A stretch of DNA of 28,808 nucleotides, from positions 1 to 28,808 of IMG/VR virus record IMGVR_UViG_3300020042_004808; one strand, written 5' to 3'. The translations under genes were made by a program, and so were the position numbers. The notes below the pieces were generated by a model. The model saw only the letters and a list, made by a program, of their open reading frames with translations, ran no database searches and was not told where the DNA came from. Source of the stretch: a virus. Lineage: Duplodnaviria; Caudoviricetes. This document shows, piece after piece, positions 1 through 25,201 of the stretch (positions are counted from its first letter, which is position 1; each line of letters starts with the position of its first letter).

Positions 1-702
1 ACGGCTGTTGCTGGCAACTGGCACACTGAAGCTGCTGCGGTTACTGTACAGGATATGACTTTTACAAGGGAGACATTTAATGCACACGTTTTAAACACGT
101 TAGTAAAAGTTTCTGTTGAATGGGCAAACGATGAGTTTGGTCTTTTAAATACAGAGTTACCTGTTATGTTAGGTGAGCGTTTAGGCCGTGGTCTAAACAC
201 TGCATTTACAACCGGTGATGGTTCTGGTAAACCAACAGGATTCAGAGACGTTGCTCCATCCGGTGTAGAATCTGCATCTACTGGCGCATTTACTGCAGCT
301 AACTTAGTTGAATTGGTTCACTCTGTGGATGTTGCTTATAGAAATAGTCCATCTGTTGCATTTATGATGCACGATAATATTTTATCTGCGGTTAGAAAGT
401 TAAATTTTGATACTGCAAATAATCCATTATTCCAACCATCATTAAGAGAAGGTGCGCCAGATAAACTTTTAGGCTACAATTATTTTGTAAATAATGATTT
501 GCCATCAACTCAAGCAGCTGATGCAAAAATTATTTTCTTTGGTGATTGGTCTAAATATGTTATACGTCAAGTTGCCAACAATGTGCTTGTGCCATTGCGT
601 GAGCGTTTTATGGACGAAATGGAAATTGGTTTCTTAATGTATGCTCGTTATGATGGCAAGTTGCTACAAACTGCTGCAATTAAGCACCTAAAGAATCTGT
701 AA
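1..702 (+). CDS. Phage major capsid protein, HK97 fold (5'-truncated by window)
   Basis: Frame is open from base 1 (TAVAGNWHTEAAAV...). Motifs GDGSGKPTG, LLGYNYFVNNDLP, IIFFGDWSKY and ARYDGK are typical of the HK97-family capsid C-terminal half. Confidence 0.93.
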   Translation, partial: TAVAGNWHTEAAAVTVQDMTFTRETFNAHVLNTLVKVSVEWANDEFGLLNTELPVMLGERLGRGLNTAFTTGDGSGKPTGFRDVAPSGVESASTGAFTAANLVELVHSVDVAYRNSPSVAFMMHDNILSAVRKLNFDTANNPLFQPSLREGAPDKLLGYNYFVNNDLPSTQAADAKIIFFGDWSKYVIRQVANNVLVPLRERFMDEMEIGFLMYARYDGKLLQTAAIKHLKNL

Positions 703-765: not shown

Positions 766-1326
766 ATGGCTTGGAAAGTAACTACTGCACCTGTTAATGA
801 ACCTTGGACTCTTGCCGAGGTTAAAAGCTATTTAAAGATTGATGATTCAAACGAAGATTCAATGTTAAATACTCTTATAAAAGGTGCAAGGATGGTGGCA
901 GAGAGTTATTTAAACCAAGCATTAATTACACAAACAATAACGGAGAAGTTTGATAGGTTATCTAATCCTACTTTATACCTTAGTGTATCTCCTGTTATTG
1001 CCGTTACTAATTTCCAGTACGCAGACAGCCAAAATACTACGCAAACCTTTGCAGCGACTAATTATGTCGTTGACACATTTAGTGAACCAGCACGGCTCTC
1101 TATTGCTTACGGGAAAACATGGCCTACACTTTACGGAAACATAAATGATGTAACGATTACTTATACGGCAGGATACGACACAGAAAGTAGCGGTGTGCCA
1201 TTCCAAATAAGACAAGCTATCTTATTAATGATAGCCGATACCTACGAGAATAGGCAAGATTACGTTAAAAAATTACCTACTGCATCTCAATATTTACTTG
1301 ACCAATATCGCGTTCAATATTTCTAA
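766..1326 (+). CDS. Head-tail connector (gp6/gp15-like adaptor)
   Basis: EPWTLAEVKSYLKID...ED..L..LI..AR..AE; VTITYTAGY; IRQAILLMIADTYENR; directly after capsid. Confidence 0.9.
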   Translation: MAWKVTTAPVNEPWTLAEVKSYLKIDDSNEDSMLNTLIKGARMVAESYLNQALITQTITEKFDRLSNPTLYLSVSPVIAVTNFQYADSQNTTQTFAATNYVVDTFSEPARLSIAYGKTWPTLYGNINDVTITYTAGYDTESSGVPFQIRQAILLMIADTYENRQDYVKKLPTASQYLLDQYRVQYF

Positions 1327-3311
1327 TGAAGTATAACAAAAATGAAATTATTGGTCGAATGCGTGACAGGATAACTATCCAAAATGTCACACGTTCAAAA
1401 TCAGATACAGGCTTTGCCCAGGAGTCATGGGCAGATAGTGCCATAGTTTGGGCAAATGCCGAAAGCAAGTTACCTCCATCAAATGAAACGGTGATTGATG
1501 GAAAGAATACTGCTAAAAATATAAGCGACTTTACTATAAGATATACGACAGGCATAGATGAAGAAAGTCGTATTATTTGGAATGACAAGTTATACCAAGT
1601 AAGAAATATAAAAGTAAGTCACGATAGAAGATTTATAAGTTTTCAAGGCGAGTTCTACGACTCCTACATACTTACCGGTGTTTCCGTTGCTGCTATCCTT
1701 TCAGCCAATGCAAATGTATCATCCAATATAAAAGTGATACACAATGTCCTTGCTGCAATGAATGCCATAGCAACGACGAACGCTGAATTAACAGTAAGCC
1801 AACAAGGTCAAGTCTTGGCTGCGGCTTCCTTATCCGCATCTGGCAATCTTTCTGCCAATGCTACAAAAGTGATACCAATTAATAGCGATGTTACGGCAAA
1901 TGTCACATTAGCTGCTGCGGTAACAAAAGTTATAAATATAGATAGTACATTAAATGCAAATGCTACTTTATCGGCAAATGCTTTAGTGAGCAAAACATTA
2001 TTAAGTACATTAAATGCAAATGCTACTACATCGGCTGCTGTTGATGTAGTAACGCAAGGCTCTGTTAGTGTAGATGCATCTTTAACAGGATTAGGCACTG
2101 TTGCTGCTGAAATTAAGCGCACAGTTACATTAGAAAGTAGTTCAAGCACAAGTGCAACCACAGAATTAAACGCTACGCTTACCAAAGTAATTGAGGCAAG
2201 TGCTACTGCAACGGCTAACACACAAAGTACAGCACAGTTAACTATACCAGTTAACGCAGCTGCAAATGCTACGGCTAACACATCGGCAAATGCTACATTA
2301 TCATACACAGTTAATGCCGAGTTAAATGCTACGGCACAGACAAGCGTTGACGCACAGATAACAAGGATTATCTCCGCAGAAATGACTGCTACGGCACAGA
2401 CAAGCGTTGAGGCAGGTGTAGGAGTTACCTTTGTAGCTTCACTAATGGCTTCGGGCTCTGTAACAGATGCAAGTCTTTTAAGAACGGCAACCTTGGCGGC
2501 AAGTGTAACGGGAGCGGCAACGGTGACGGGTGCGACGTTGGATGTATTTGATGGAGATGCGTCTGCATTCTTTGGAAGAGTTACTGCGGCTGGAGGAACA
2601 TTGACTACAACCGAACAAACGGCTGTTAATACATTGGTTATTTCAATGAAAGCAAACGGTACATGGGCAAAGATGAAAGCCATTTACCCAATGGTTGGGG
2701 CGAGTGCGGCAGCCTGTAGACAAAACTTAAAGTCTTCAAGTTTTACAGGAACATTTAGTAGTGGATGGACATTTGCAAGCACTGGAGCAACACCTAATGG
2801 AATAAATGCGTTTTTTGATACTGCATTTAACACCAATACAAATCAAAGTGTAAATAATTGTTCGTTAAGTATTTATTTGCGTACTGCTACGATGGGAACG
2901 GATTATATTACTGATATAGGTAATGCAAACACACCAAGTTATTTGCCCTTAACAAGTATTGAATCAAATATTAATGAAAGATTACAATATTGTTGGGACT
3001 TTACAACCGCTGTGGCTACAATTTCTACAACAGATAGCCGAGGTATGTGGGGAACTTCAAGAAGCGGTACAAGTTCTTGGGTATCTTTTGAAAGAAATAC
3101 AGCAGTCGCAAAAACAACAACAACTTCACAAACATCGTTGCCAAATTTAAATGTATATTTAGGGGCTGCTAATTTAAATTCTGTGGCTGGACAATTTTCT
3201 TTTAGACAAATAGCATTTGCTCATTTAGGAAATTCGTTGACTAACACTGAATTTAATAACTTTTATACTGCAATTCAAGCATTTCAAACAACCTTAGGTA
3301 GAGCCATATGA
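1326..3311 (+). CDS. Head-closure (SPP1 gp16-like stopper) domain fused to Ala/Thr/Ser repeat stalk and C-terminal globular (possibly lectin/LamG-like) domain
   Basis: The N-terminal ~110 aa (IGRMRDRITIQ...W....VWA...FTIRY...RIIWNDKLYQV) match the head-closure pattern. About 290 aa of 20-aa repeats follow, then ~255 aa of beta-rich sequence. Confidence 0.82.
   Translation: MKYNKNEIIGRMRDRITIQNVTRSKSDTGFAQESWADSAIVWANAESKLPPSNETVIDGKNTAKNISDFTIRYTTGIDEESRIIWNDKLYQVRNIKVSHDRRFISFQGEFYDSYILTGVSVAAILSANANVSSNIKVIHNVLAAMNAIATTNAELTVSQQGQVLAAASLSASGNLSANATKVIPINSDVTANVTLAAAVTKVINIDSTLNANATLSANALVSKTLLSTLNANATTSAAVDVVTQGSVSVDASLTGLGTVAAEIKRTVTLESSSSTSATTELNATLTKVIEASATATANTQSTAQLTIPVNAAANATANTSANATLSYTVNAELNATAQTSVDAQITRIISAEMTATAQTSVEAGVGVTFVASLMASGSVTDASLLRTATLAASVTGAATVTGATLDVFDGDASAFFGRVTAAGGTLTTTEQTAVNTLVISMKANGTWAKMKAIYPMVGASAAACRQNLKSSSFTGTFSSGWTFASTGATPNGINAFFDTAFNTNTNQSVNNCSLSIYLRTATMGTDYITDIGNANTPSYLPLTSIESNINERLQYCWDFTTAVATISTTDSRGMWGTSRSGTSSWVSFERNTAVAKTTTTSQTSLPNLNVYLGAANLNSVAGQFSFRQIAFAHLGNSLTNTEFNNFYTAIQAFQTTLGRAI
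1670..2545 (+). repeat. Degenerate 60-bp (20-aa) tandem repeat region
   Basis: Exact copies 60 bp apart: AGTACATTAAATGCAAATGCTACT at 1944 and 2004; ACGGCTAACACA at 2211 and 2271; TGCTACGGCACAGACAAGCGTTGA at 2327 and 2387. Confidence 0.85.
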
Positions 3312-3532
3312 TAGGATATAAATTAACAGAAAATCAAAAGAATTTTGTACAAAACAAATTCTACACAACGCACCAATTTATAAATTGTGTGCAAGATATA
3401 AACGGCATTTGGTTCACTTTCTTCACTGACGAAGACAAGGAAATAATTGCCACAACGGATATAGCTTGGATTTTAGAATGTGAGCAAATGGAATATACAT
3501 TACCTATTGCCGTAAATCCTTTTAATACCTAA
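3308..3532 (+). CDS. Small hypothetical protein, possible fibre-associated/assembly factor
   Basis: 74 aa; ATGA overlap with upstream fibre gene suggests translational coupling. Confidence 0.7.
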   Translation: MIGYKLTENQKNFVQNKFYTTHQFINCVQDINGIWFTFFTDEDKEIIATTDIAWILECEQMEYTLPIAVNPFNT

Positions 3533-3536
3533 CACG

Positions 3537-4511
3537 ATGAAAATAGCCATTTTTACAAACATCAACTCCCCTGCTACCGACTTTTATCGCACGGTTGGCT
3601 GCTATGCCTACATGGGGCATGATATTAGATACCTTGCCATTGAAAGTGCAAAGTGGTTTGATTTAATGGATGTTGATGTGGTAGTGGCTAAATCTCCTAA
3701 TGGCATGGCGTACTTTGAAATGCTAAGAGAGTGTAAAAGGATGGGTAAGAAGATTATCATTGACCATGACGATAATCTGCACGAAACAACACGGACTAAT
3801 CCGGCACACATTGGATTAAGCCATGAGGCAATGAGAAAAACGGTCGAGGATTGCTTTGGCTTTGCTAACCATATTATTTATTCTACCGATGCCTTGCAAA
3901 AGTATTATATGCCGTATCACGAAGGCATTGCAAGCACTGTTATAAATAATGGATGGAATCCAATTATTCAGCCATTCATGCCAGTGCCTAAGATAGAAGA
4001 TAAGATAAGATTTATTTGGCGCGGTTCAATGCATCACTTGGATGACATTGGCAGCATAGAAAGTTATATAAACGAGTTAGCGGAAGATGAGAGCTGCGAT
4101 GTTGCCATGCTTGGCATACAAGATTTTATTATGGCTCACTTGTTCCCAAAGGTAAAAACAAAGGAATGGAATAGTTCACTCTTTGGTTACTTTGAAACAT
4201 TGAACAATAGCCAATGCCATTACGGATTATTTCCGTTACTCAAAAACGATTTCAACTTTGCAAAGAGTAATATATTTGCCATTGAAATGTTAGTAGCTGG
4301 AGGAGTTACCATTGCACCAAAGGGCATACCAGAGTACAACATTCCAGGTGTGATAAAGTATGACAACTTTGGCGATGTCATGCAGGCAGTGAAAAATAAG
4401 GACTTTGACAGAGAGGCAATAGTGAAGGAGGGAAGGGAGTATTTGAATGATGTGCTTAGAGTTGATAAGACAAACAAAAAGAGAGAACTAATTTTAAATA
4501 ATTTAAACTAA
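3537..4511 (+). CDS. Glycosyltransferase (GT-B/GT4-like)
   Basis: DFYR near N-terminus, KKIIIDHDDNL, IIYSTDAL, VINNG, RFIWRGSMHH, PLLKNDFNFAKSNI..IE: motif series typical of phage GT-B glycosyltransferases. Confidence 0.82.
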   Translation: MKIAIFTNINSPATDFYRTVGCYAYMGHDIRYLAIESAKWFDLMDVDVVVAKSPNGMAYFEMLRECKRMGKKIIIDHDDNLHETTRTNPAHIGLSHEAMRKTVEDCFGFANHIIYSTDALQKYYMPYHEGIASTVINNGWNPIIQPFMPVPKIEDKIRFIWRGSMHHLDDIGSIESYINELAEDESCDVAMLGIQDFIMAHLFPKVKTKEWNSSLFGYFETLNNSQCHYGLFPLLKNDFNFAKSNIFAIEMLVAGGVTIAPKGIPEYNIPGVIKYDNFGDVMQAVKNKDFDREAIVKEGREYLNDVLRVDKTNKKRELILNNLN

Positions 4512-4517
4512 TAAACT

Positions 4518-4913
4518 ATGAGTGCTTTTTCAAATTATTTGGAAGACCAAATAACAGGATGGATAGCAGGAACATCAATGACTGCTCCTACTGCTACTTT
4601 TGTACAGTTATACAACGGTGATCCATTAGACACAGGATTAGGAGGTACTGCTCTTTACTCAAGAATTACAGTTGCATCTGGTGCAGGGTCATGGACAAGA
4701 GGAACTGGAGGTAACGGTACAATTACAAATGCATCTGCTTTTACTATTACATCAAGTGCAACGGCTACGGCATCTGCTACTCACGTTGCAGTATTTGACG
4801 CTTCAGCATCTGGTAATTTACTTTTCTTTGGTCAATTAACAACTGCAAAAACTATTGCATCTGGTGATGAAGTTAAGTTTAACGCATCTGCATTAACTTT
4901 AACAGTTGCCTAA
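4518..4913 (+). CDS. Small virion structural protein (fibre-associated beta-sandwich family)
   Basis: MSAFSNYLE...THVAVFDASASGNLLFFGQLTTAKTIASGD..F...L.L, a pattern common in phage structural modules next to fibre genes. Confidence 0.7.
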   Translation: MSAFSNYLEDQITGWIAGTSMTAPTATFVQLYNGDPLDTGLGGTALYSRITVASGAGSWTRGTGGNGTITNASAFTITSSATATASATHVAVFDASASGNLLFFGQLTTAKTIASGDEVKFNASALTLTVA

Positions 4914-4915
4914 AT

Positions 4916-4945
4916 ATTAGGAGAATACTTAGGTGTTCTCCTAAT
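4916..4945 (+). terminator. 13-bp hairpin, terminator or mRNA-stabilising stem
   Basis: ATTAGGAGAATAC-TTAG-GTGTTCTCCTAAT; U-tract is weak. Confidence 0.55.
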
Positions 4946-4957
4946 TAATATTTTACT

Positions 4958-5542
4958 ATGACTTACATTACGCAGAGCCAAATATCAAGACTAAGGAAAT
5001 CAAGCGGAACAGGTGCTAAGAGGAGAGGCTTGTTTGCTAATGGTTTGGCTGAATGCGTGCTTGAATTAGATGACATCTTATCAAATATAACAGTTGATAA
5101 AAGAATGGATGTTATCAATGCCGCAATGCCTGCTGCAATAAATATATATAAGTCGCTTATTCCTGTGTCTAAAAAAGAACACAAAATAAGTACGTTTGCT
5201 AAAGGTGTAGGTAAGTCTGATGGTAATAGTAAGTATAGGTATATAGTTAAACCTGGCAATCTCCAAAGGTCTGTAAAAGGTTTAAGCCAATTACTAAAAA
5301 AATACAAGTGGAACAATGGAGCAATAGGGCCTCATTACATTCCACAGCCAGTAGGTTCTACTTTAAATAGTGAACAAAAATACGATGGCTTTTACGCTCA
5401 CATGGTTTACGGATCTGCAAAAGCATGGAGGCAAAAGATAGTCTTAAAAGCAAAAACTATGTCTGCATCTGTTGTTTATCCAAAGATGATAGCAGAGGCA
5501 AAGGAAGTAGTTAAGATGTACCCTAAAAAGTTTTGGGAATGA
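4958..5542 (+). CDS. Putative neck/tail completion protein (HK97 gp10-like)
   Basis: Basic protein with PGNLQRSV and DGFYAHMVYG; located before tail terminator. Confidence 0.7.
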   Translation: MTYITQSQISRLRKSSGTGAKRRGLFANGLAECVLELDDILSNITVDKRMDVINAAMPAAINIYKSLIPVSKKEHKISTFAKGVGKSDGNSKYRYIVKPGNLQRSVKGLSQLLKKYKWNNGAIGPHYIPQPVGSTLNSEQKYDGFYAHMVYGSAKAWRQKIVLKAKTMSASVVYPKMIAEAKEVVKMYPKKFWE

Positions 5543-5928
5543 TAGGAAAGGTAATATACGGAAGGTTAAGCGCAGAGCCAACAGTCATAGCGATTGTTGG
5601 GCAAAAGATATATCCGGACTTAACTCCACAAGATGTTCAATATCCTTTCTGTGTTTACACTATTGTAAACTCCACTCCCGTTGATTACAAGGATGGACAA
5701 AGTAACTTGGAGGAGGTGCAATTTCAAGTTGATTGCTACACTCAAAGCTATGATAGTACACAAGAACTTGCAAACAACATAAGAAATAGCCTTGATAGGT
5801 TTACCGGCACAGTTAACGGTATAAGTGTACAAACGATTAAATATATGTCAAGTGATTCACAAGTGTACAATCCTACGCTAAATGTATACTGGATGTCAGT
5901 TGATTTTATGGCAAGAATGAAACGATAA
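5539..5928 (+). CDS. Tail terminator/completion protein (DUF3168/gp17-like)
   Basis: IYPDLTPQ..YPFCVY, QFQVDCY, ELANNIRNSLD; ATG 5539 overlaps upstream TGA (ATGA). Confidence 0.85.
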   Translation: MIGKVIYGRLSAEPTVIAIVGQKIYPDLTPQDVQYPFCVYTIVNSTPVDYKDGQSNLEEVQFQVDCYTQSYDSTQELANNIRNSLDRFTGTVNGISVQTIKYMSSDSQVYNPTLNVYWMSVDFMARMKR

Positions 5929-5930
5929 TT

Positions 5931-6200
5931 ATGAAAATAAGATTAATAAAAACGTGGAATGGCAAGCCAGTAGGCGCAACAGGAGTTTTCCTTTCCGACT
6001 TTGGCAAGCAACTTGTTGCCGATGGCATTGCAGAGCATCTTGATGATGATTTTGTAGTGGAGCAAATGCCAGAGAAAAAAGTGCAAGAGGCACCTCAACC
6101 TATTTATATTCCTGTGCCAATGCCTATGCAATATTTTGAAGATGAGAATGAATTGGAAAAAATTGATGTTAATATAGATTTGTCAAAAGTTAAAAAATAA
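5931..6200 (+). CDS. Small hypothetical phage structural-module protein
   Basis: 89 aa ORF filling the gap between terminator and tube genes. Confidence 0.65.
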   Translation: MKIRLIKTWNGKPVGATGVFLSDFGKQLVADGIAEHLDDDFVVEQMPEKKVQEAPQPIYIPVPMPMQYFEDENELEKIDVNIDLSKVKK

Positions 6201-6204
6201 TAAA

Positions 6205-6630
6205 ATGCCAACTACAGGAATTATTAATGGTACGTTGATGCGCTTGTATAAAGATTCAACTGCAATCGGTTACGCCACATCGTGCCAAATGAACATCTCG
6301 GCTGCAATGCGTGAAATCTTAACAAAAGATAGCGCAAGCGGAGGATGGAGAGAAGTAAAGAAGGGTCAGTTATCTGGCACACTTTCAACAGAGGCATTAT
6401 ATGCCGGTCCTGGTGATTCATCTACCAATTACTTGTTTGATGATCTCTTTACAGATTTAATTAGTGGTACTGCACTCACTATTAAATTTACTACAGATGT
6501 TAGCGGTGACAACGTGTTTACAATGCAAGCCATTTGTACATCATTAGACCTTAATGCAGCCGTAGAAGAAAATACAAGCTACTCAGCTTCTTTTGAAGTT
6601 ACTGGTGCTATTGTTAAGACAACAAAATAA
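6205..6630 (+). CDS. Major tail tube protein
   Basis: IGYATSC, TKDS..GWRE...G, TSLDLNA..E...YSASFEVTG: siphovirus tube protein pattern. Confidence 0.9.
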   Translation: MPTTGIINGTLMRLYKDSTAIGYATSCQMNISAAMREILTKDSASGGWREVKKGQLSGTLSTEALYAGPGDSSTNYLFDDLFTDLISGTALTIKFTTDVSGDNVFTMQAICTSLDLNAAVEENTSYSASFEVTGAIVKTTK

Positions 6631-6648
6631 TTTTAAAAATTACCTAAA

Positions 6649-6978
6649 ATGAAAACAATAAAAATAGCTAATGCGGACATACCATGTAAATTTGGTATGT
6701 TCGTTTTAGGTACATTTTTAAGGGAGAGGAACCTTAAATTAAGTGACCTCTCCCTCCTTGGCGAAGACCTCCTATTTGCCCTTGAACTTGCCTTTGCAGG
6801 TGTACAGGCAGGTTACAAGGCAAAGGGAGAGAAGTGCCCATATACCTTAGAAAAGTTTTGCGATTTAGTAGATTTGGATAAGGGAGGAATAAACAGGATA
6901 ACGGAGCTGATAACAAATGAGATTTCAGTACCAGAAGATCCGGAAAGAAAAAACGAGATAGCGGAGGAGGTGAGTTAA
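6649..6978 (+). CDS. Tail assembly chaperone (gpG-like)
   Basis: Between tube and tape-measure genes; slippery A AAA AAC at 6948-6954 near the 3' end. Confidence 0.8.
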   Translation: MKTIKIANADIPCKFGMFVLGTFLRERNLKLSDLSLLGEDLLFALELAFAGVQAGYKAKGEKCPYTLEKFCDLVDLDKGGINRITELITNEISVPEDPERKNEIAEEVS

Positions 6979-7292
6979 CACTTGACTACATCGAAAGATT
7001 TTGTTTTGGAGTCCTTAGATTCCATCCTTCGCAATACTATGAAATGACATTGAGAGAGGTTATTATAGCTATGCAAGGTTATAATAACCAATTTGAAATA
7101 GAGCAGCAATTTGAGTGGGAAAGAGCCAGGTGGCAAACTACACTTTTATTAAATGTTCATACGGCAAAGGGAAAGTCAATTAAGCCTAAAGATTTGATTG
7201 AGTTTCCTTGGGAGACAGATAATCCAAAACCAACTAAAAGAAGTTTATCAGAAGTTGATAAGTCAATTTTTGAGAAATGGGATAAAGAGTAA
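6948..7292 (+). CDS. Tail assembly chaperone -1 frameshift extension (gpGT-like)
   Basis: The -1 frame is open from the slippery site (KRDSGGGELTLDYIERFCFGVLRFHPSQYYEMTLRE...) into ORF 7044-7292. Confidence 0.8.
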   Translation, partial: KKRDSGGGELTLDYIERFCFGVLRFHPSQYYEMTLREVIIAMQGYNNQFEIEQQFEWERARWQTTLLLNVHTAKGKSIKPKDLIEFPWETDNPKPTKRSLSEVDKSIFEKWDKE

Positions 7293-7294
7293 TA

Positions 7295-9337
7295 ATGGCA
7301 AATGCAGCGCAGTTAAATCTTAAACTTGGCATAGATGTTTCAAGCCTTTCCCGTGAACTTGGCAAGGTAGAAAGTAGAATGACAAAGTTTGGCTCACAGA
7401 TGCAGAACATTGGCAGCACTATGACGCAGTCGTTAACTCTGCCTTTACTTGGTGTTGGTGCAGCTTCATTGAAGGCATTTGCCGACATGGAAAAGTTGGA
7501 GAATGGATTAATTGCCATTATGGGTAGCAGTGAAGATGCAGCAGTTGAATTAATAAAGTTGCGTAAAGTTGCTGAAAATCCTGGTCTTGCTTTACCTGAA
7601 GTTGTTAAAGCATCTGCTGCTTTACAATCAGTTGGAATGTCAGCAGATGCAGCAAGAGAAACAATAACACAGTTTGGCAATGCCGTAGCAAGGTCTCCTA
7701 CACCTGATCCTGAAACATTTAATGGAGTTACAATGGCATTAAGTCAAATGAGTGCAGTAGGCAAAGTTACTCAAGAAGATTTAAATCAATTAAAAGAAAG
7801 ATTGCCAGAATTTGCAACTGTTATGAAAAATGAATTTGGCACAGCAACTGCCGAAGGCATTAGAGCAATGGGTTTAAGTAGTGAAGATTTTATAACGCGG
7901 TCTGTTAGTGCTTTAAGTGAATTAGGTAGAGCTCAGGGAGGATTAGCAAATACTTTTAACAATTTAAAAGACAATGTAACTGCTTCATTAGCAGAATTTG
8001 GAAAGGCTATAAATGAATCACTAAATTTACAAGCCGTTGCAGAAAGTTTAAGCAAATATATACAAGGTTTAGTAGATGGATTTAAAGCTCTTAATCCAGA
8101 GACTCAAGGCTTTATAGTTAAGGCTGCTTTAGTAGCTGCATCCATAGGGCCTATTATATTTATAGTAGGTAAATTAATAAGTACATACGGTGCTTTGGCA
8201 GGAGCCTCAAAATTAATAGTACAAGCAATAGGAAATATAAGTAAAGCATTTAGCTATTTAGCTGCCAATCCAATGATTTTGGTAGTTACTGCATCCATTG
8301 CTGCTATCGGTGCTATTGCATTGTATGTTTATGATAACTGGAAGGCATTTAGCGACAACTTTAAAAACATTTGGATAAACATTAAAAACTCTGTAATGGA
8401 AGGAGTAGCTAATGTTTTAAAAAATATTGACTATTTACAGAAAGCATTAGGTTTAAATTTATTTAATCTTGATGGATTAACATCGTATCAAAAGGAACAA
8501 AGAATAGTAGCTACAGAGTTTAAAAGTATTGGAGATACTGTTGATAGTTTAAAAGTCAAACTTGCCTCATTGTTTACAACGGGTGCAAAAGCAACAAATG
8601 GAGGTGGAGGTATTACTGTACCAACTATGCCGACAGAATCAAGTGCTACTACAACAGGCGGCGGTGGCGGTGGAATAGGTTCTGCTGCATCAATGGGTGC
8701 AGGTTTAGGTGTTATAGGAATTTTACCGACATTAGATTTATTGCCAGATAAATTAGAAAGTATATCAGCTGCAAATGAAAGATTAAAACAAACAAATGAA
8801 GATGTTGCAAATTCATTTAATAAAATTACACCTGCTGTTAAATCTATTGAAGATTTACTAACACCATTACAAAAATCACTTGTTTTAGGTGTTGAGGCAT
8901 TTGCAAATTTAGCAGAGAGTGGATTTAAAAGCATGAAAGAATTGGCAGCAGCAGTTAGGCAAAGTATAGCAGTTATAGTAGGTGATATGATAAAAGTATT
9001 TGTAGCTAAAGCATTAGCAGGTTTACCTCCATCACCTTTTATGCTTGCGATTGCTCCTGCTATTGCTGCTCTTGCAGGTTCATTAGGTAAAAGTTTAATT
9101 ATGAAAGTAGGCGCTCCAAAACTTGCCGAAGGTGGCTTGGCATACGGGCCTACTATGGCAACGGTAGGAGATAACAAAAATGCTCGTGTTGACCCAGAAG
9201 TAATTGCTCCTTTATCAAAATTAAAAAGCATGATGGGAGACATGGGCGTAGGTGGCACACTGGAGACAAGGATAAGCGGAAATGATTTGATTATATTGCT
9301 AAACAGATCTCAAAAAGGTCTTAGTAGAATACAATAA
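7295..9337 (+). CDS. Tail tape measure protein
   Basis: 680 aa Ala/Gly-rich helical protein; tape-measure domain (ALSQMSAVGKVTQEDLNQLKER); C-terminal LAEGGLAYGPTMATVGD..PEVIAPL. Confidence 0.93.
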   Translation: MANAAQLNLKLGIDVSSLSRELGKVESRMTKFGSQMQNIGSTMTQSLTLPLLGVGAASLKAFADMEKLENGLIAIMGSSEDAAVELIKLRKVAENPGLALPEVVKASAALQSVGMSADAARETITQFGNAVARSPTPDPETFNGVTMALSQMSAVGKVTQEDLNQLKERLPEFATVMKNEFGTATAEGIRAMGLSSEDFITRSVSALSELGRAQGGLANTFNNLKDNVTASLAEFGKAINESLNLQAVAESLSKYIQGLVDGFKALNPETQGFIVKAALVAASIGPIIFIVGKLISTYGALAGASKLIVQAIGNISKAFSYLAANPMILVVTASIAAIGAIALYVYDNWKAFSDNFKNIWINIKNSVMEGVANVLKNIDYLQKALGLNLFNLDGLTSYQKEQRIVATEFKSIGDTVDSLKVKLASLFTTGAKATNGGGGITVPTMPTESSATTTGGGGGGIGSAASMGAGLGVIGILPTLDLLPDKLESISAANERLKQTNEDVANSFNKITPAVKSIEDLLTPLQKSLVLGVEAFANLAESGFKSMKELAAAVRQSIAVIVGDMIKVFVAKALAGLPPSPFMLAIAPAIAALAGSLGKSLIMKVGAPKLAEGGLAYGPTMATVGDNKNARVDPEVIAPLSKLKSMMGDMGVGGTLETRISGNDLIILLNRSQKGLSRIQ

Positions 9338-11559: not shown

Positions 11560-11923
11560 TTACACCGAAAGAACAGTTTTATCGAAACCTCGAGATTTTG
11601 CCGAAGTTGCTAATAATGCAGGCAGTGGCGGAGTGGTAAATAACAATGTCACAGAAACTATAAACAATGTGACTGTTACCGGATCAGCAGTTAATATTTT
11701 TAACCAAGAATTTCTTAATACCTCCTCAGCGGTTTTAATTTGGACACAGAATGCAGGTGTGCTACCAAAAACCAACCTTTCTGCATCTGTCCATGTCTAT
11801 CAGAATGGTCAAAAATTAATAGCAAGTCAATATGTTATAACGGCACCTGCTACTATTACTATTGATACTAACACGCATTATGATGGAAGTAACTACATTG
11901 TATTTGCAATAAATATAAACTAA
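11552..11923 (+). CDS. Small tail-associated protein
   Basis: 123 aa, beta-rich, VHVYQNGQKL motif; overlaps both neighbours. Confidence 0.6.
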   Translation: MPNYTERTVLSKPRDFAEVANNAGSGGVVNNNVTETINNVTVTGSAVNIFNQEFLNTSSAVLIWTQNAGVLPKTNLSASVHVYQNGQKLIASQYVITAPATITIDTNTHYDGSNYIVFAININ

Positions 11924-14481
11924 TGGAAGAAATAAAAGCACCAAAGAAAGAAAGAAAGTTTTTAAAAGGACTTGGCGAGATTGCCCTTGTCCTTATCCGT
12001 GAGCTTGTGCTTGGCATTGGCAAAAAGGTAATTAACAAAGTAGGCAATAAACGAGAAAAACTTGTTATTGCCATTATCATCCTTGCCTCCTCCGTTGCTT
12101 TTGCCCAGTACCCAGCAACAGGAAATAAACAACGACTTGGTTACCAGAGTACTGGCGATGGTCTTGTTTTTAGAGGAAGGTCAAACGATACAACGGCTTT
12201 AAAACCTTCTACTATAAATAATGCCTACCATCTATTTGACACAGTTAACAATGTCTTATTTAGTTATATTAAGACTAAAGGAGGATGGAAGTTTAATAAT
12301 AGCGATACAGTTATTATAAACGGAGTTACTATGCCTTTTGATTCTATTACCTTTAACACAGCCAAGGATGGCACAGTTGGAGTAGGTGAGTTAGAGTACA
12401 ATGATACGCAAGGGAGTTTAATACAAGGATTTAAAGGTGGCTTAGTTACAAATGTTATAGGGCAGCAATTACATCAACGCGTTAACAATCGCACTGGTGC
12501 AACATTGGCAAAAGGTGATGTAGTTTATTTATCTGGTAGCCAAGGGAACAGAATAACAGTCGCAAAAGCGATTGCAACAAGTGATCCAACATCTGCAAAT
12601 ACTTTTGGCATTGTTGCAGAAAGCATAGCCGACAATCAAAGCGGTTATGTTATTACAGAAGGATTATTAACAAATATAAATACATCTGCTTTAATCGTAG
12701 ATTCAGCCGTTTATTTATCTGGCACAACAGCAGGCGCATTAACATCTATTAAACCACAAGCACCTATTAATGGTGTTTATATTGGAGTATGTGTAAAGAG
12801 TAATGCAGGAAGTGGTGAGGTATTTGTAAAGATTAGAAATGGTCAAGAATTAGACGAGCTTCACGATGTGCTAATTACTAATCCAACAAGTAATGCATCA
12901 CTTTTTTACAAAAGTAGCGAAGGACTTTGGCGCGACACAACGGCGGCACTATTAGTAAGCGACACGGCAAGTATGCTTACAAATTATTTGCGTACAGGGG
13001 TTGCGGCTGGGACTTATTTACCATTAGCAGGTGGAACATTGACTGGTGCAATTAAAAGACAAGATAATAATTATGATGGAAGTCCAAATACATTTTATTT
13101 TAATTTATTAAATTATTTTGCAAGAAAAGATAATAATCAAAATCAAGGTCAAACCGCTCAAATTTCTTTTACAGATAGACCAGGTACTGATAATTTCCCT
13201 AATCAGGTGCGAACATCTGATATTCATTTAATGACCGCTCATAATTGGAATGGTTCTGCTTATGGACAATATCTTGACACTACTTTATCTGTTGTTGCAA
13301 ATCAAGATGGAGGACGTATTGGTATAAATAAATTAAACCCATCTTATAAACTTGATGTAAATGGTACTCTCGGTGTAACAGGCGCAGCCACTTTATCTAA
13401 CCTTGCAGGCTCTGGCACTCGCATGGTTACGGCAAGTTCTACGGGATTATTAAGCACTCAAACCATTCTAACACCAACAACAAGGGGTTCAAATACATTT
13501 ACTTTACCTGACATTGGAACTATATCATTTCTGCGTTACAATGCAGATAACACTGTAAGTCAAAGGGGAGCGGATGGAATGCGCAGTGATTTGGGAGGTA
13601 CAACTATTGGACAATCAATTTTTACTTTAACCAATCCTTCTGCTGTAACATTTCCAAGATTTAACGTTGATAACACGGTTACAGCTTTAGATGCTGCAAG
13701 TTTTAGAACGGCGATTGGTGTAGGAACTGGTACAGGCACGGTGACATCTGTAAGTGCAGGAAGTCCTGCAAATGGTTTAAGTGTAGCAACAGGGACAACT
13801 ACACCAGTTATATCAATGGCATTAGCTGGCAGTGGAACAATAGGAGTAGTTAGTGCAACTACTCAAACATTTGGCGGTGATAAAACATTTAATGGTGTTT
13901 TAAATGCAAGTAGTGATTTAAATGTAACAGGGTTAAGCACATTAACAGGTGGAGCAACTATTGGCACAATGTCAACACAATCAGCATTAACTAATATACT
14001 TGGAGTAAATTCAAGCAATACAATAGGTGAAATAGGTTTAAATAGTGTATTTTCCTTATCAAGCGGTGTTTTAAATATTCAAGATGCAGGTGCATCTCAA
14101 AGAGGTATAGTCACTGCCACTACACAATCATTTGGTGGTAATAAAACATTTACTGACATTGTTGGCTTTAGCAAAGCGATTCAAAGACCTATAGCAACTA
14201 TAACTGGAAATACAACTATTCAAACATCTAATTGCTGGGTAATTGTAAATAATACAGGAGGTACAACAACTTTAACGCTACCTGATGCTACTCTTGCAAC
14301 AGGTACTGAATTAATGATAAAAACGGCTCAAGCACAAGCGGTAATAAGTGCCTCATCAAACGTAGTACCTTTAACTTTTGCAAATACTGCATCTACAAAT
14401 ATTTTACCTGCAACAGATGGAGCGTGGTGTACGTTGGTAAGTAATGGTACTTTTTGGGTAACAATGCAAGCAAATTTTTAA
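11923..14481 (+). CDS. Tail-fibre-like/adhesin protein with N-terminal signal-peptide-like segment
   Basis: 852 aa, Gly/Thr-rich; modules KGDVVYLSG..GIVAE..VYLS, YLPLAGGTLTG, RIGINKLNPSYKLDVNG, QTFGGDKTF x2; residues 43-62 KREKLVIAIIILASSVAFA|Q. Confidence 0.75.
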   Translation: MEEIKAPKKERKFLKGLGEIALVLIRELVLGIGKKVINKVGNKREKLVIAIIILASSVAFAQYPATGNKQRLGYQSTGDGLVFRGRSNDTTALKPSTINNAYHLFDTVNNVLFSYIKTKGGWKFNNSDTVIINGVTMPFDSITFNTAKDGTVGVGELEYNDTQGSLIQGFKGGLVTNVIGQQLHQRVNNRTGATLAKGDVVYLSGSQGNRITVAKAIATSDPTSANTFGIVAESIADNQSGYVITEGLLTNINTSALIVDSAVYLSGTTAGALTSIKPQAPINGVYIGVCVKSNAGSGEVFVKIRNGQELDELHDVLITNPTSNASLFYKSSEGLWRDTTAALLVSDTASMLTNYLRTGVAAGTYLPLAGGTLTGAIKRQDNNYDGSPNTFYFNLLNYFARKDNNQNQGQTAQISFTDRPGTDNFPNQVRTSDIHLMTAHNWNGSAYGQYLDTTLSVVANQDGGRIGINKLNPSYKLDVNGTLGVTGAATLSNLAGSGTRMVTASSTGLLSTQTILTPTTRGSNTFTLPDIGTISFLRYNADNTVSQRGADGMRSDLGGTTIGQSIFTLTNPSAVTFPRFNVDNTVTALDAASFRTAIGVGTGTGTVTSVSAGSPANGLSVATGTTTPVISMALAGSGTIGVVSATTQTFGGDKTFNGVLNASSDLNVTGLSTLTGGATIGTMSTQSALTNILGVNSSNTIGEIGLNSVFSLSSGVLNIQDAGASQRGIVTATTQSFGGNKTFTDIVGFSKAIQRPIATITGNTTIQTSNCWVIVNNTGGTTTLTLPDATLATGTELMIKTAQAQAVISASSNVVPLTFANTASTNILPATDGAWCTLVSNGTFWVTMQANF

Positions 14482-19109: not shown

Positions 19110-19643
19110 TTATTTGTTTAAATAGTTTTTACTTGCTACTGGCTCTTTCCCCTGGTCTTTATACTTTGCATCTGCTTTGCTGGCATAGTCGGTGTATGGC
19201 ATTTCAGATATGTCATGATAGCATATTTGCGCTATTTTCATGCCTGAATAAATCTTAACTGGTTGTACACAAACAAGTTCTAAAGTCCAGTGCCCTTTGA
19301 AATTAACATCTCCAAAACCTGCCGTTACATGGACAAATAAACCTAATCTTCCTAAACTTGATTTACCTTGTATTATCGGCACATGGCGAAGTGTCTCCGT
19401 ATATTCGACAGTTGACGCAAGGTATAAAATGTTTGGCTGCAAAATCATTCCTTCTTCAGGTATAATCATAGGAGCATAAGCATTCTTCTTCCTGGTGTCA
19501 AGAACATGGTCAGTGTACATTAGCAAAGTATTGCTCAGTGTTAAGTCCACACTGTTAGTGCCAATGTTTGCTTCTATTAAAGGCTCAATGACAATGTTGC
19601 CAGCTGCTATTTCGTCAATAATGGTCTTGTCTGTTAAAATCAT
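19110..19643 (-). CDS. dcd: dCTP deaminase
   Basis: MILTD..I, NSVDLTL, LASTVE, GKSSLGRLGL, AGFGDVNFKGHWTLEL, GMKIAQI, KYKDQ. Confidence 0.93.
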   Translation of the reverse strand: MILTDKTIIDEIAAGNIVIEPLIEANIGTNSVDLTLSNTLLMYTDHVLDTRKKNAYAPMIIPEEGMILQPNILYLASTVEYTETLRHVPIIQGKSSLGRLGLFVHVTAGFGDVNFKGHWTLELVCVQPVKIYSGMKIAQICYHDISEMPYTDYASKADAKYKDQGKEPVASKNYLNK

Positions 19644-19858
19644 TTGTCTTCTTTTTTATAAATTCCGTTGTAATATTTATTTGCATACTTATCGTAATGT
19701 GAATATTCAAGACCATAAGGTAAAGCCGACATATAAGCCTCCTTTATCTGCTCTCTTTCCATTTGTAAAACTTCTTCTTGCAACTGTTTTGAAACTTTTA
19801 TTCCAGCATTTACCCGTAATACCTCTATTAAATATTCAACTGCCGTTTGTTTGCTCAT
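19640..19858 (-). CDS. Small hypothetical phage protein
   Basis: KQTAVEYL...MEREQIKEAY...YYN pattern; overlaps both neighbours. Confidence 0.7.
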   Translation of the reverse strand: MSKQTAVEYLIEVLRVNAGIKVSKQLQEEVLQMEREQIKEAYMSALPYGLEYSHYDKYANKYYNGIYKKEDK

Positions 19859-20160
19859 TTCTTTAGGTCATTTAATTCTGGATGTGTAAAATAAAATTCG
19901 GTCAGCATTGCTGCATTGCACATCAAGTGTGCAGAGTGCAAAAGTCCGCTTTCATTGTCTATCATTTCACCAAGTCGCATTGCTTCCAGGTGACGCATAG
20001 CGGAGGCAATGACAACAGAAAAGGGAAAGCCTTTCTCCCAGTTGCCAGCATCGTATTTTTCAAGTCCTTGTGTCCATACTTTGGCATATTCCCTTTGCGC
20101 TATCGCTGGGCAAAGGTCGTAGCGTAGTTTATTTTCGTTGTGTCTAATGGCTTCTTTCAT
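19855..20160 (-). CDS. DUF5664 / dATP-dGTP diphosphohydrolase N-terminal-like protein
   Basis: KLRYDL.P, G.EKY...NWEKG, AMRHL, D.ESGLLH.AH..CN. Confidence 0.85.
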   Translation of the reverse strand: MKEAIRHNENKLRYDLCPAIAQREYAKVWTQGLEKYDAGNWEKGFPFSVVIASAMRHLEAMRLGEMIDNESGLLHSAHLMCNAAMLTEFYFTHPELNDLKK

Positions 20161-20798
20161 AGGTGAAATGCTTCTAAAGATAATATAAATTTATTTGTAA
20201 GTTTTAACTCATGCAGCATCTCCATCGCTATATGCCTTGTTTCTGCCTGTGTATCTTTTGTAATTCTTAATTTCCAAAAGTTTATGTAGGCTAATAGAGA
20301 TCCTGTCCACATAAAAGTTGTTTCAAGGTTTAAAGGTAAAACAGTACGCGCTTGTTCTTTTGCCACTCCCAACTGCAAGAGCTCATGGTAAGCAGTAGCG
20401 CAATAATTAATAACATCATCTTGTATTATTAACGCTGCATCATTGTCATACATCTCTAAATCTTGTCCGCTGCCTTGCTTACTGCTTTTACTTTGTAATC
20501 TAAAATCTTCTATCCTGTAATAGTTATCTTCAAAATCTACATATCTACCAGAAATACTATTTGCCGTTAATCCCACCTGGTGCTTAAACAACTGACGCTC
20601 TACAAAGATAGGGCAGGTTATCCGGTACTGTAATTGTGGATGCCGAAAAGGGGAAGTGTGATTGTTTTCTGCAAGATATTTTATCAACTTTGCATTTTGA
20701 TCTTCAGAGTAGTTACTGGCTTCCTTGCCAAATGAAACGCGAGCTGCGTTAACTACCATTTCATCATTGCCAAATATTTCTAATAATTCTATTTTCAT
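20157..20798 (-). CDS. thyX: Flavin-dependent thymidylate synthase
   Basis: VVNAARVSF, HTSPF, PIFVERQLFKHQ, SISGRY, GVAKEQARTVLP, KLR....Q.E. Confidence 0.95.
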   Translation of the reverse strand: MKIELLEIFGNDEMVVNAARVSFGKEASNYSEDQNAKLIKYLAENNHTSPFRHPQLQYRITCPIFVERQLFKHQVGLTANSISGRYVDFEDNYYRIEDFRLQSKSSKQGSGQDLEMYDNDAALIIQDDVINYCATAYHELLQLGVAKEQARTVLPLNLETTFMWTGSLLAYINFWKLRITKDTQAETRHIAMEMLHELKLTNKFILSLEAFHL

Positions 20799-24448: not shown

Positions 24449-25201
24449 TTAATCTCCACAAAAACAAGATATATCTGGTTCATCAAACAAAGTTTTATTT
24501 AAAGCTAATGACTTAATTGTTTCCATTTTAAAGTCCTTATGAAACCTTGCATTAATTTTATTCTCTTGTTCTATCCACCAGTCTAATCTTTCTGGCATCA
24601 AATGGGCTTGTGCTACTTTCTTTTTAGTTCCTTTCATAAAACAAAAATCACAATTACTTAATGTGCTATGTATTTTAAGGTCAAATCCTTGATTACTCCA
24701 AAATGTTTTGACATCATTTACATTAACATTAAAATCCCAAAGTGGAAATATATAATCCCATCTATCTTTAGATACTTTATTTTTCATTTTAAAATATCTA
24801 TTTGGTTCGTCTTTTCTAATTCCAATAGCAGCATCCCAATGTTTGTGACCTAAGGACTTTAAATATCTTGCCATAGGTAATATTTTTAATTCCGTGGTAC
24901 AAAATCTTTTAACTCTGTTTGGCAAATAACCGCGTTCCTTTATCATGTCAGAAAAAGGTTCACCATTTCTGGAGGCAGTTTCGTAATTTACAATTTTATA
25001 TTTATTTTCATTGCAAAATTCTAACCAAACTACATCAAGCTTCCATCGAATATCACATTCATTTACAAAATCTAATGTTTCGTCCATTTCTTTACCTGTG
25101 TTGGCAAAAGTAAATATCAAATCATCTTTAGAATAATTATCAACCATAATCTTTGCCATCATAGCCGATGAACGGCCTCCAGAAAAACTTACTTGTATCA
25201 T
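24449..25201 (-). CDS. PAPS reductase-family (PP-loop) protein
   Basis: VSFSGGRSS, FANTGKE, FCTTELKI, IGIRKDE, NCDFCF, C-terminal SCFC. Confidence 0.88.
   Translation of the reverse strand: MIQVSFSGGRSSAMMAKIMVDNYSKDDLIFTFANTGKEMDETLDFVNECDIRWKLDVVWLEFCNENKYKIVNYETASRNGEPFSDMIKERGYLPNRVKRFCTTELKILPMARYLKSLGHKHWDAAIGIRKDEPNRYFKMKNKVSKDRWDYIFPLWDFNVNVNDVKTFWSNQGFDLKIHSTLSNCDFCFMKGTKKKVAQAHLMPERLDWWIEQENKINARFHKDFKMETIKSLALNKTLFDEPDISCFCGD

Follow-up and report, generated by a model that had tools for sequence, protein, structure and literature searches.

Hc1 stoppers are usually stand-alone proteins of ~100-120 aa. In the window analysed here (the whole 28,808-nt stretch of IMGVR_UViG_3300020042_004808, Caudoviricetes), the gene in the stopper position is a single plus-strand frame of 661 aa at 1326-3311 with no internal stop, which raises the question of what the remainder of this protein is and how a phage neck would use it. 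The answer that we consider probable is that the protein combines a stopper, a 14-unit rope and a predicted lectin-fold tip, and that, jointly with a Gp80-family protein, it forms a neck fibre of the bead-chain type. The features are listed in Table 1.

Analysis of the N-terminal domain revealed matches to PF05521 Phage_HCP over residues 9-103 (55.8 bits, cut-off 25), to phrog_25, head closure Hc1 (E 9e-13), and to TIGR01563 gp16_SPP1 (28 bits, cut-off 20.6). The stopper homologue 2KZ4 was the sole match of the whole protein in a sequence search of the PDB. The preliminary description had set the domain beside stoppers of the SPP1 gp16/lambda FII type; the SPP1 gp16/Hc1 identity fits the evidence, and no lambda FII profile matched the domain. 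The gene is preceded by that of the adaptor and followed by those of the tail terminator and the tail tube, an order kept in the relatives, and PF05521 has one match in the whole record, which is 76% complete. AlphaFold2 modelled the stopper domain poorly (pLDDT 29-56). Since no sheath gene was found in the tail region, we take the virus to be a siphovirus (long-tailed phage). Profile searches of the neck genes detected no collar-like member, the rope being fused to the stopper instead. The 194-aa gene gave no match in family profile searches, and the glycosyltransferase-like gene is missing from part of the relatives. Among 50,697 records of cultured phages, none covered 80% of the 661-aa protein. 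GTDB genomes gave no match with a single-sequence query, and an alignment query returned one partly masked contig, too weak for fixing the host.

Table 1. Neck, fibre and tail features of the window, with the evidence for each.
Feature	Coordinates	Strand	Evidence
HK97-type major capsid protein	1..702	+	PF05065 158 bits; 5' end lost at contig edge
Head-tail adaptor Ad1 (gp6/gp15-like), docking ring for stopper	766..1326	+	PF05135, phrog_442, TIGR02215 94 bits
Stopper (Hc1) domain, aa 1-112, putative fibre anchor	1326..1661	+	PF05521, phrog_25, TIGR01563
Probable rope, aa 118-406, fourteen 20-aa units with two 24-aa spacers	1677..2543	+	Periodicity
Tip domain, aa 408-661, swappable cassette	2547..3311	+	Predicted model; tip classes of relatives
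74-aa partner of present tip type, likely chaperone or cap	3308..3532	+	Travels with tip
Glycosyltransferase-like gene within module	3537..4511	+	phrog_7162, E 1.5e-18
Gp80-family bead protein (GP4 fibre I / Bas63-Sf14 whisker fold)	4518..4913	+	PF23140, 8JOU
194-aa gene, slot of HK97 gp10-like neck protein	4958..5542	+	Position alone
Tail terminator / completion protein	5533..5928	+	PF11367 59.9 bits, phrog_347
Major tail protein, likely tail-assembly chaperones, 680-aa tape measure	6205..9337	+	PF06199, PF20155, phrog_1407, phrog_58

The stopper, the repeats and the terminal domain had been described as one continuous frame, and this fusion is genuine. All 129 closed Hc1 frames in the fetched loci (duplicates counted) extend to 478-743 aa; they represent 67 distinct proteins, and the complete distinct relatives are fused in 67/67 cases. 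A metagenome scan found 28 of 29 Hc1 frames closed at 456-743 aa, the other one leaving its contig at 410 aa. Support across 1640-1700, which had been left to be checked, was found in four runs, belonging to three studies (one of which may be the source study), whose contigs cross this segment without gap or joint, and the rope-tip junction is bridged without difference solely in the possible source study. The in-frame fusion persists to ~30% identity (P0272, P0274, P0280). Distant stoppers are mostly stand-alone, with 105 of 131 Hc1-bearing representatives at most 135 aa long, and a relative of 114 aa with 65% identity (P0258) lies on a contig of 1016 nt. A search for loci of the stand-alone near relatives P0258 and P0285 found none, and no second stopper was present in the loci of relatives (0/203).

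An assembly or gene-calling artefact that merged the stopper gene with a downstream fibre gene might be suspected from the short database proteins P0243, P0248, P0249 and P0255, which end soon past the stopper in unrelated-looking tails, but the fused relatives, the gap-free bridging contigs and the metagenome scan refute it, and we give it practically no weight. The fusion could also be translational only, with the rope-tip part cleaved off, or with a frameshift or internal start yielding a short stopper, in which case few or none of the six ring subunits would carry a fibre. The many short Hc1 representatives and the 114-aa relative favour this explanation, whereas the absence of a conserved internal Met, the in-frame fusion kept among distant relatives and the lack of a second stopper in their loci speak against it. 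No conserved slippery heptamer occurs near the junction either (best 6 of 157 loci), and a programmed frameshift at the stopper-rope junction was rejected for this reason. We regard translational fusion as very improbable, and return to the protein as an intact stopper, rope and tip.

The segment behind the stopper is periodic. Its identity autocorrelation peaked at lag 20 (z 9.4), then at 40 and 60, against 1000 shuffles, and the 14 repeat units start at residues 118-387, the last ending at 406. Tandem Repeats Finder recovered almost nothing from the DNA, one weak 39-nt row, and a repeat that is detectable in the protein but hardly in the DNA must be old. The repeat columns strictly alternate small or hydrophobic with polar residues, the mean hydropathy on alternate positions being +1.99 vs -1.10. 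Over 780 units, Ala/Gly/Ser account for 91-99% of columns 6, 10 and 12 and large hydrophobic residues for 96% of column 4, and Pro and Gly make up 0.6% and 3.4% of the residues. The unit spacing equals 20 in 1042 of 1276 steps. Rope length varies from 4 to 16 units among the relatives, and at the sequence level the rope can be seen to gain and lose whole units. Modelled alone by AlphaFold2, the repeats adopted no confident fold (pLDDT 20-50). Sequence searches of the PDB with the rope profile and with the candidate rope of phage GP4 returned no rope match.

A bead gene is found 1.2 kb downstream of the fused stopper gene. The protein encoded at 4518-4913, overlooked in the preliminary description, is a Gp80-family protein: PF23140 matches it with 91.2 bits (cut-off 27), phmmer aligns it with 8JOU at E 2e-12, and its predicted model superposes on 8jou_a (GP4 gp80) with TM 0.70, Z 11.8 and rmsd 3.0 over 123 aligned residues, the next structural matches being Sf14 (Z 7.7) and then the Bas63 whiskers. 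The Gp80 gene follows the fused stopper in 60 of 67 distinct cases, and the remaining 7 contigs stop at most 1104 nt past the stop codon. Where a Gp80 locus has at least 3 kb upstream, rope units are present there (57/57), and they are never downstream of Gp80 (0/80), although these linkage counts are not independent because the linked loci are close relatives. A search for a locus of the distant fused form P0272 found none of its own; it gave 8 tip-led matches and one stopper of 30% identity, with a Gp80 match in none. Near-identical ropes occur with Gp80 proteins of 48-98% identity, and no tight co-variation is apparent.

We also inspected six public phage records chosen out of 85 Gp80 matches. 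In 4/6 (GP4, C72C1, Faith1, Lietuvens), the gene immediately behind Gp80 shows a 20-residue period that exceeds the shuffle maximum. This gene is the top scorer with a coarse repeat profile in 5/6 and exceeds 100/100 shuffles in 3, the scores being weak for the GP4 candidate rope (reached by 7/100 shuffles) and for Faith1 (19/100). A strict repeat profile was clear for C72C1 only and above the shuffle maximum for CRP-4; it did not recognise the GP4 candidate rope, and MW202481 has no rope adjoining Gp80. The low pLDDT of the repeats and their linkage to Gp80 turn us away from the stand-alone stalk proposed earlier: most likely the repeats are a rope, probably for threaded Gp80-family dimers, and not a self-folding stalk. 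One Gp80 dimer per 20-aa unit is likely, and stops short of certain because the GP4 candidate rope has ~10 periods by eye vs five dimers reported per fibre.

The protein ends in a globular domain of 254 aa (residues 408-661), modelled as a helical cap and a ConA/LamG-like beta-sandwich with a hypervariable middle. Its ConA-type matches have overall Z scores of 15.8-16.9 and rmsd values of 2.7-3.4 over 183-214 aligned residues, and include the tailspike of cyanopodophage Pan3, 9vyh_q (Z 15.8, rmsd 3.4, 214 aligned), and the sugar-bound domain 4 of AbnA (Z 15.8, rmsd 2.9, 183 aligned). Foldseek aligned the tip with sialidase chains (E 3e-4), and PF13385 occurs in 24% of the members among its Atlas neighbours. 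Pfam, including PF13385 Laminin_G_3, gave no match for the present tip at E 0.1; tips of relatives, e.g. P0011, do match PF13385. A ConA/LamG lectin fold is predicted from the model, into which the adhesin-like terminal domain of the preliminary description fits well, and we infer glycan binding as a candidate role. Clostridial neurotoxin binding domains are also represented among the top matches, by lectin-like subdomains of 7-13% identity that agree at fold level only and give no sign of a toxin function.

Comparison of the relatives indicates that this domain is replaced as a unit. Among 31 distinct relatives with Hc1 identity of at least 90%, one has the present tip type (46% identity), and the median identities in the same 31 are 91% for the rope and 97% for the major tail protein. 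Phages whose capsid and tail proteins stay ~90-100% identical exchange tips that differ in fold altogether, namely ConA-like, Gly-rich PF21722 and DUF6923, which is the pattern of a host-facing part. The 74-aa gene trails the present tip type in 3 loci and also accompanies the tip in the unrelated contexts L057, L058 and L106, and Gly-rich tips have a different partner gene, phrog_7759. At the level of sequence these data show that tip and partner gene are swapped as a cassette, evidently through recombination in the last rope units.

Combining these elements with the solved relatives suggests how the fibre may be built, the element missing from the earlier interpretation, which is thus partly supported. 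As established for the family, six stoppers would make up the ring that joins the adaptor to the tail terminator. Each C-terminal rope would exit this ring as an extended beta-strand, and every 20-aa unit would occupy the groove of its own Gp80 dimer, completing the open beta-sandwiches of that dimer and burying the small/hydrophobic face of the rope. A fibre may then hold ~14 dimers and measure from ~38 nm at the A1002 pitch to 95 nm when fully extended, and the Gp80 chains of a virion would number up to 168. Up to six bead-chain fibres would leave straight from the neck, and the earlier proposal that the stopper ring anchors about six appendages at the neck fits the evidence. A separate collar ring would be unnecessary, as the essential stopper is itself the anchor. 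The 74-aa protein may fold or cap the tip, which could bind surface or capsule glycans of the host in a reversible step that precedes commitment of the tail tip.

The repeats might instead fold on themselves into a two-strand-per-turn beta-solenoid, curli- or beta-helix-like, forming a rigid stalk of ~7 nm and leaving Gp80 a role elsewhere. AlphaFold2 indeed collapses residues 143-408 with two short strands per unit, the small inward residues are compatible with such a core, and the model aligns to beta-helices and CsgA with Z 12-13.6, but these matches were rejected, as the model lies below pLDDT 50 there. The alternation, moreover, is unbroken in columns 4-20 and no turn column has a fixed Gly, Asn, Asp or Pro above 50%, while the rope preceding Gp80 in every informative locus would be left unexplained. 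The same low-confidence beta-helix prediction, next to a gp80 homologue, is doubted in the available text on phage LSH1 (PMC13243795). A solenoid is consequently unlikely. Rope and beads could also be retained with the fibres folded on head or tail, bracing the head-tail joint or shielding the virion, and the tip docking on the virion itself. Precedents are found in the accessible descriptions of the Bas63 whiskers, which touch capsid and sheath and are proposed as head-to-tail anchors, of the GP4 fibres, which dock on the capsid, and of the A-1(L) neck fibre, whose tip failed to bind host cells (PMC10966104). The exchange of unrelated tip folds on nearly unchanged capsids and tails is hardly expected of a virion-docking part, and we judge this arrangement improbable; an outward-facing bead-chain fibre is the reading that we retain.

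Stoppers are regarded as small conserved plumbing, and the genes described here are annotated just as 'head-tail adaptor'; in this phage a probable fibre is rooted in the stopper and bears the hallmarks of a receptor-binding protein. The rope-and-bead principle is already known from the solved fibres of GP4, A1002 and Bas63/Sf14, and what surprises is therefore the stopper anchor and the swappable tips, not the type of fibre. We found no stopper-anchored fibre in the open-access literature. The range of rope-and-bead fibres, whose solved examples have come from podo- and myoviruses, would be extended to a collar-free siphovirus neck. The number of 20-aa units would equal the number of beads and set the fibre length, a rule readable from sequence for which the natural series of 4 to 16 units is available as a test, and the whole suggests a simple modular display scaffold on the phage neck. 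A wider interpretation, possible although we hold it only tentatively, is that of a neck-borne second host-recognition system with six bead-chain fibres of 40-95 nm rooted in the essential, DNA-gating stopper, a genetic ruler of 4-16 units that would determine their length, a cassette of tips traded across lineages that would determine specificity, and a rope-tip cassette grafted on various neck rings. If this were true, the cassette would have been grafted to the C-terminus of a stopper, a tail-terminator-like protein or a myovirus neck protein, neck rings would serve generally as display platforms, and the main host-range variable in an abundant group of freshwater phages would lie in the tip at the neck and not in that of the tail.

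Compared with known systems, the protein shares with SPP1 gp16/Hc1 proteins a profile match over the cut-off and a gene directly after the adaptor, but it is longer by 550 aa. Fibre I of the Ralstonia podophage GP4 (Zheng et al. 2023) reportedly has five dimers in each of five fibres, and its rope is said to be a protein of its own that attaches to an Ig-like collar. GP4 gp80 is homologous to the bead protein in sequence and fold, and the gene after it has a 20-aa period, as the rope has here; the rope described here is instead fused to the stopper.

The collar-whisker of the Felixounavirus phages Bas63/Sf14 occupies a similar neck position beside the adaptor and head-completion rings, and in Bas63 the rope passes along the grooves of the whisker dimers, whose incomplete sandwiches it completes; as far as described in the available text, these are myoviruses with a head-completion protein of standard fold, and their rope, two dimers long and tipless, is contributed by a separate 12-mer collar as its N-terminal arm (PMC12609058). 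In gp34-gp36 of the Alishewanella siphovirus LSH1, a gp80 homologue lies beside an adhesin with a poorly predicted, possibly repetitive tail, but this module is separate, optional, distant from the neck genes and includes an Ig-fold gene, and no rope is assigned in the accessible part of the paper (PMC13243795). The Anabaena myophage A-1(L) has a bead-chain neck fibre of ~100 nm with ~14 beads and an end of carbohydrate-binding type; its beads are described there as self-assembling, trimeric, ropeless and on a 15-mer neck ring, so that the likeness is only an analogy (PMC10966104). The closest parallel is the Pseudomonas podophage A1002, in which, according to the available text, the hexameric nozzle-rope gp39 carries 11 gp80-like dimers of gp40/gp41 by beta-sheet augmentation, the main fibre-dock region spanning residues 243-468, which amounts to 20.5 aa for each dimer (PMC13730344). 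There the rope is N-terminal to its anchor on a podovirus nozzle, with two bead genes and an Ig-like end, while here it is C-terminal on a siphovirus stopper, with one bead gene and a swappable lectin-fold or Gly-rich tip. As far as that text describes it, A1002 would share with the architecture proposed here a rope on a hexameric core virion protein, ending in a globular domain, six chain fibres and ~20 residues per dimer.

Analysis of the window revealed that the fusion gene is a single reading frame lying inside the head-neck-tail module of a siphovirus, and no sheath gene was detected among the tail genes scanned. It is followed by a 74-aa gene, a glycosyltransferase-like gene, the 131-aa and 194-aa genes, the tail terminator, the tail tube and the tape measure. 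The record is a linear virus contig of 28.8 kb with an estimated completeness of 76%.

Positions of the features discussed, in the window and in loci of related or public phages
Sequence	Positions	Strand	Feature
Window	1-702		Capsid gene
Window	766-1326		Adaptor gene
Window	1326-3311	+	Fusion gene (stopper, rope and tip), 661 aa
Window	3537-4511		Glycosyltransferase-like gene (phrog_7162)
Window	4518-4913		Gp80 gene, 131 aa
Window	4958-5542		Gene in gp10-like neck slot, 194 aa
Window	11923-14481		Final tail-module gene, 852 aa
Window	19110-20798, 24449-25201, 26635-27747		dCTP deaminase, dATP/dGTP diphosphohydrolase, ThyX, PAPS-reductase-like and MT-A70 methyltransferase genes
L111 (myovirus)	2747-4759		Neck protein + rope + PF09206-like tip
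L136 (CRP-4)	2447-3208		Unannotated probable rope adjoining Gp80
L137 (Lietuvens)	4403-5326		Unannotated probable rope adjoining Gp80
L138 (C72C1)	4397-5107		Unannotated probable rope adjoining Gp80
L140 (Faith1)	4361-6649		Unannotated probable rope adjoining Gp80

The preliminary description had read the protein as a head-closure domain running without a stop into 20-residue repeats and a globular domain, and both the domain and its fusion proved correct. Residues 9-103 match PF05521 (55.8 bits, cut-off 25), phrog_25 Hc1 and TIGR01563 gp16_SPP1, and residues 408-661 form a globular domain in the AlphaFold2 model. The Hc1 match was found in 157 fetched loci, a count that includes repeat-fetched contigs; all 129 closed frames extend to 478-743 aa and collapse to 67 distinct proteins, and the remaining 28 are cut by a contig end. 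Of the 408 relatives obtained in a protein search, 120 were listed, and 78 of these have the stopper domain, with lengths of 442-732 aa. Of 29 frames in a metagenome scan, 28 are closed (456-743 aa) and the other is truncated at 410 aa. Gap-free contigs bridge the junction across positions 1640-1700 in four runs, which come from three studies; X6 and X7 carry the label freshwater metagenome, X1 and X2 the label viral metagenome.

The fused form persists down to about 30% identity in P0272, P0274 and P0280, which combine a stopper with a 20-aa period and in two cases carry a LamG tip. More distant stoppers are mostly stand-alone, with 105 of 131 Hc1-bearing proteins at most 135 aa long among the 150 representatives listed. 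Shorter forms were also sought, and 20 proteins were recovered; most of the nine that were read are cut or have unrelated-looking tails, and P0258 (114 aa, 65% identity, contig of 1 kb) is possibly a genuine stand-alone stopper. A second stopper was found in none of 203 loci. Two stoppers lack the 20-aa rope and bear other payloads, a pectate-lyase-like beta-helix in P0335 (687 aa) and small repeated domains in P0305 (270 aa), and the stopper C-terminus seems to be a recurrent graft site.

The repeats, 14 units with a 20-aa period (lag-20 z 9.4), occupy residues 118-406. Among 780 distinct units, Ala, Gly or Ser fills 91-99% of columns 6, 10 and 12, and large hydrophobic residues make up 96% of column 4; the odd columns are mainly polar, and Pro and Gly amount to 0.6% and 3.4%. 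Unit spacing over 1276 steps was 20 in 1042, 24 in 154, 21 in 78 and 22 in 2, and ropes contain 4-16 units, mostly 13-15. This pattern suggests a single long strand with one face buried and no fixed turn column. Modelled alone, from a shallow alignment of 23 sequences, the repeats gave no confident fold (pLDDT 20-50); by analogy they look like the rope of Bas63 and A1002.

The probable partner of the rope, absent from the preliminary description, is the 131-aa protein, which belongs to PF23140 (91.2 bits, cut-off 27) and matches chain 8jou_a of GP4 fibre I in sequence (E 2e-12). Its AlphaFold2 model (pLDDT 75.9) combines a beta-sandwich with a helix and a short N-terminal strand, and is closest to GP4 gp80 (TM 0.70; Z 11.8, rmsd 3.0, 123 residues), followed by the Sf14 and Bas63 whiskers. 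A Gp80 gene lies past 60 of 67 fused genes, the contigs of the other seven stopping at most 1104 nt past the stop codon. Among 80 Gp80 loci retained out of 124, rope units occur upstream in all 57 with at least 3 kb upstream and downstream in none of the 80, indicating tight gene linkage in the sequences compared, although these loci are close kin and the counts are non-independent.

The tip model resembles ConA/LamG-type domains (Z 15.8-16.9). It aligns at full length with the tailspike of cyanopodophage Pan3 (9vyh_q; 214 aligned residues, Z 15.8, rmsd 3.4) and also with domain 4 of AbnA, a sugar-bound structure. The tip is conserved at its helical ends and hypervariable in between. Tips were classed in 127 distinct fused proteins, a sample skewed towards the query. 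There were 42 window tips, 26 PF13385 LamG tips, 19 PF09206-like tips, 23 that fall in the main PF21722 cluster (Gly-rich) and 17 from small clusters; looser clustering gives 87 ConA-like, 38 Gly-rich and two DUF6923-type tips. Among 31 relatives with a stopper at least 90% identical, only one has the window tip, at 46% identity, and median identities are 91% for the rope and 97% for both adaptor and tail tube; Gp80 is more variable (48-98%). The small gene past the tip varies with tip type: phrog_7759 (120-145 aa) follows Gly-rich tips in 34 loci, and a 73-74-aa gene follows the window-type tip in three loci and also occurs in unrelated contexts (L057, L058, L106). The tip is a swappable cassette. 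In other phages, the tip domain is also found stand-alone, in 2-4 tandem copies or behind Ig-like domains (P0022, P0028, P0039, P0043; L049, L057-L064), sometimes with the same 74-aa partner gene.

The rope-tip cassette is also borne by other anchors, the rope not being on a stopper in nine of 57 Gp80 loci. In eight of them (L092, L095, L102-L106, L112) it lies behind a tail-terminator-like domain of about 155 aa (Atlas score 0.88-0.89, a lead only), and the same rope and tip families are found on such a domain in P0089, P0268, P0269 and P0271; the gene order of this phage group is terminase, 99 aa, 297 aa, fusion and Gp80. The ninth is the myovirus fusion of L111, directly 5' of Gp80 and a tail sheath gene; its rope end and tip start are nearly identical to those of L102. 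A third anchor is a phrog_15100-like N-terminal domain (P0085, P0277; likewise P0267, P0278, P0279, P0283). Some phrog_15100-like fusions carry serial tips (LamG, Gly-rich, SPRY, DUF7483) and reach 1544 aa.

Of 85 public phage records that contain a Gp80 homologue, six served as an outside test. In GP4, C72C1, Faith1 and Lietuvens, the gene directly 3' of Gp80 had a best period of 20 that exceeded the shuffle maximum; this did not hold for CRP-4, and no rope was seen beside Gp80 in MW202481. With a coarse repeat profile this gene ranked top in five of six records, exceeding 100 of 100 shuffles in CRP-4, Lietuvens and C72C1, and being reached by 7 of 100 shuffles in GP4 and 19 of 100 in Faith1; a strict profile missed the GP4 candidate. 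The gene after gp80 is probably the GP4 rope. Its sequence was not in the PDB set searched, and it has about 10 periods versus the five dimers held by a separate rope, as cited in PMC13730344. In Lietuvens the rope precedes a DUF2313 baseplate protein in the same chain. Some of the Lietuvens, Faith1, CRP-4 and C72C1 ropes could serve as simpler experimental models.

Other genes of the window were also noted. The phrog_7162 gene, within the fibre module, is 97% conserved in close relatives and missing from others, and possible targets of glycosylation by its product are the Thr/Ser-rich fibre and the host surface. The 194-aa gene is swapped between near-identical relatives (30-98% identity), which is unusual for a core neck gene. 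The 852-aa gene had no Pfam, PHROG or NCBIfam matches; its N-terminus, judged by eye, has a basic stretch and a signal-peptide-like segment, odd in a virion fibre. The dCTP deaminase to MT-A70 genes point to nucleotide metabolism and possibly DNA modification. Weak hints of a host among Bacteroidota come from a Sediminibacterium assembly, which contains one related contig, and from Flavobacterium phage FL-1, which carries the tip domain.

Stoppers of this family are established to sit as a hexamer between adaptor and terminator (PMC10276861). Beyond the fusion, domain identities, repeat anatomy, linkage and tip exchange, all observed in the sequences, we propose that up to six ropes would each be coated by about 14 Gp80 dimers, giving fibres 38-95 nm long whose putative role at the tip would be reversible contacts with glycans. 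Tail length follows a rule of 0.15 nm per tape-measure residue, and the 680-aa tape measure gives about 100 nm, comparable to the proposed fibre.

In Bas63, a rope runs through the whisker dimers 'such as beads on a string' and completes their open sandwiches (PMC12609058). A1002 has a hexameric nozzle-rope with 11 gp80-like dimers per fibre on about 300 A of rope, and the main fibre-dock stretch of residues 243-468 corresponds to 20.5 residues for each dimer (PMC13730344). A preprint on P2 proposes that the baseplate has a rope-like contact (10.64898/2026.09.14.750843), and the siphovirus LSH1 has a gp80 homologue with no rope assigned. No stopper-anchored fibre was found in the open-access literature searched. 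In the known rope-and-bead fibres the rope is free in GP4, on the collar in Bas63 and Sf14 and on the nozzle in A1002, whereas here the predicted rope is on the stopper. The proposed window fibre is a real addition to the recently described rope-and-bead type and stands out by where it is anchored, by its length series and by the exchange of its tips.
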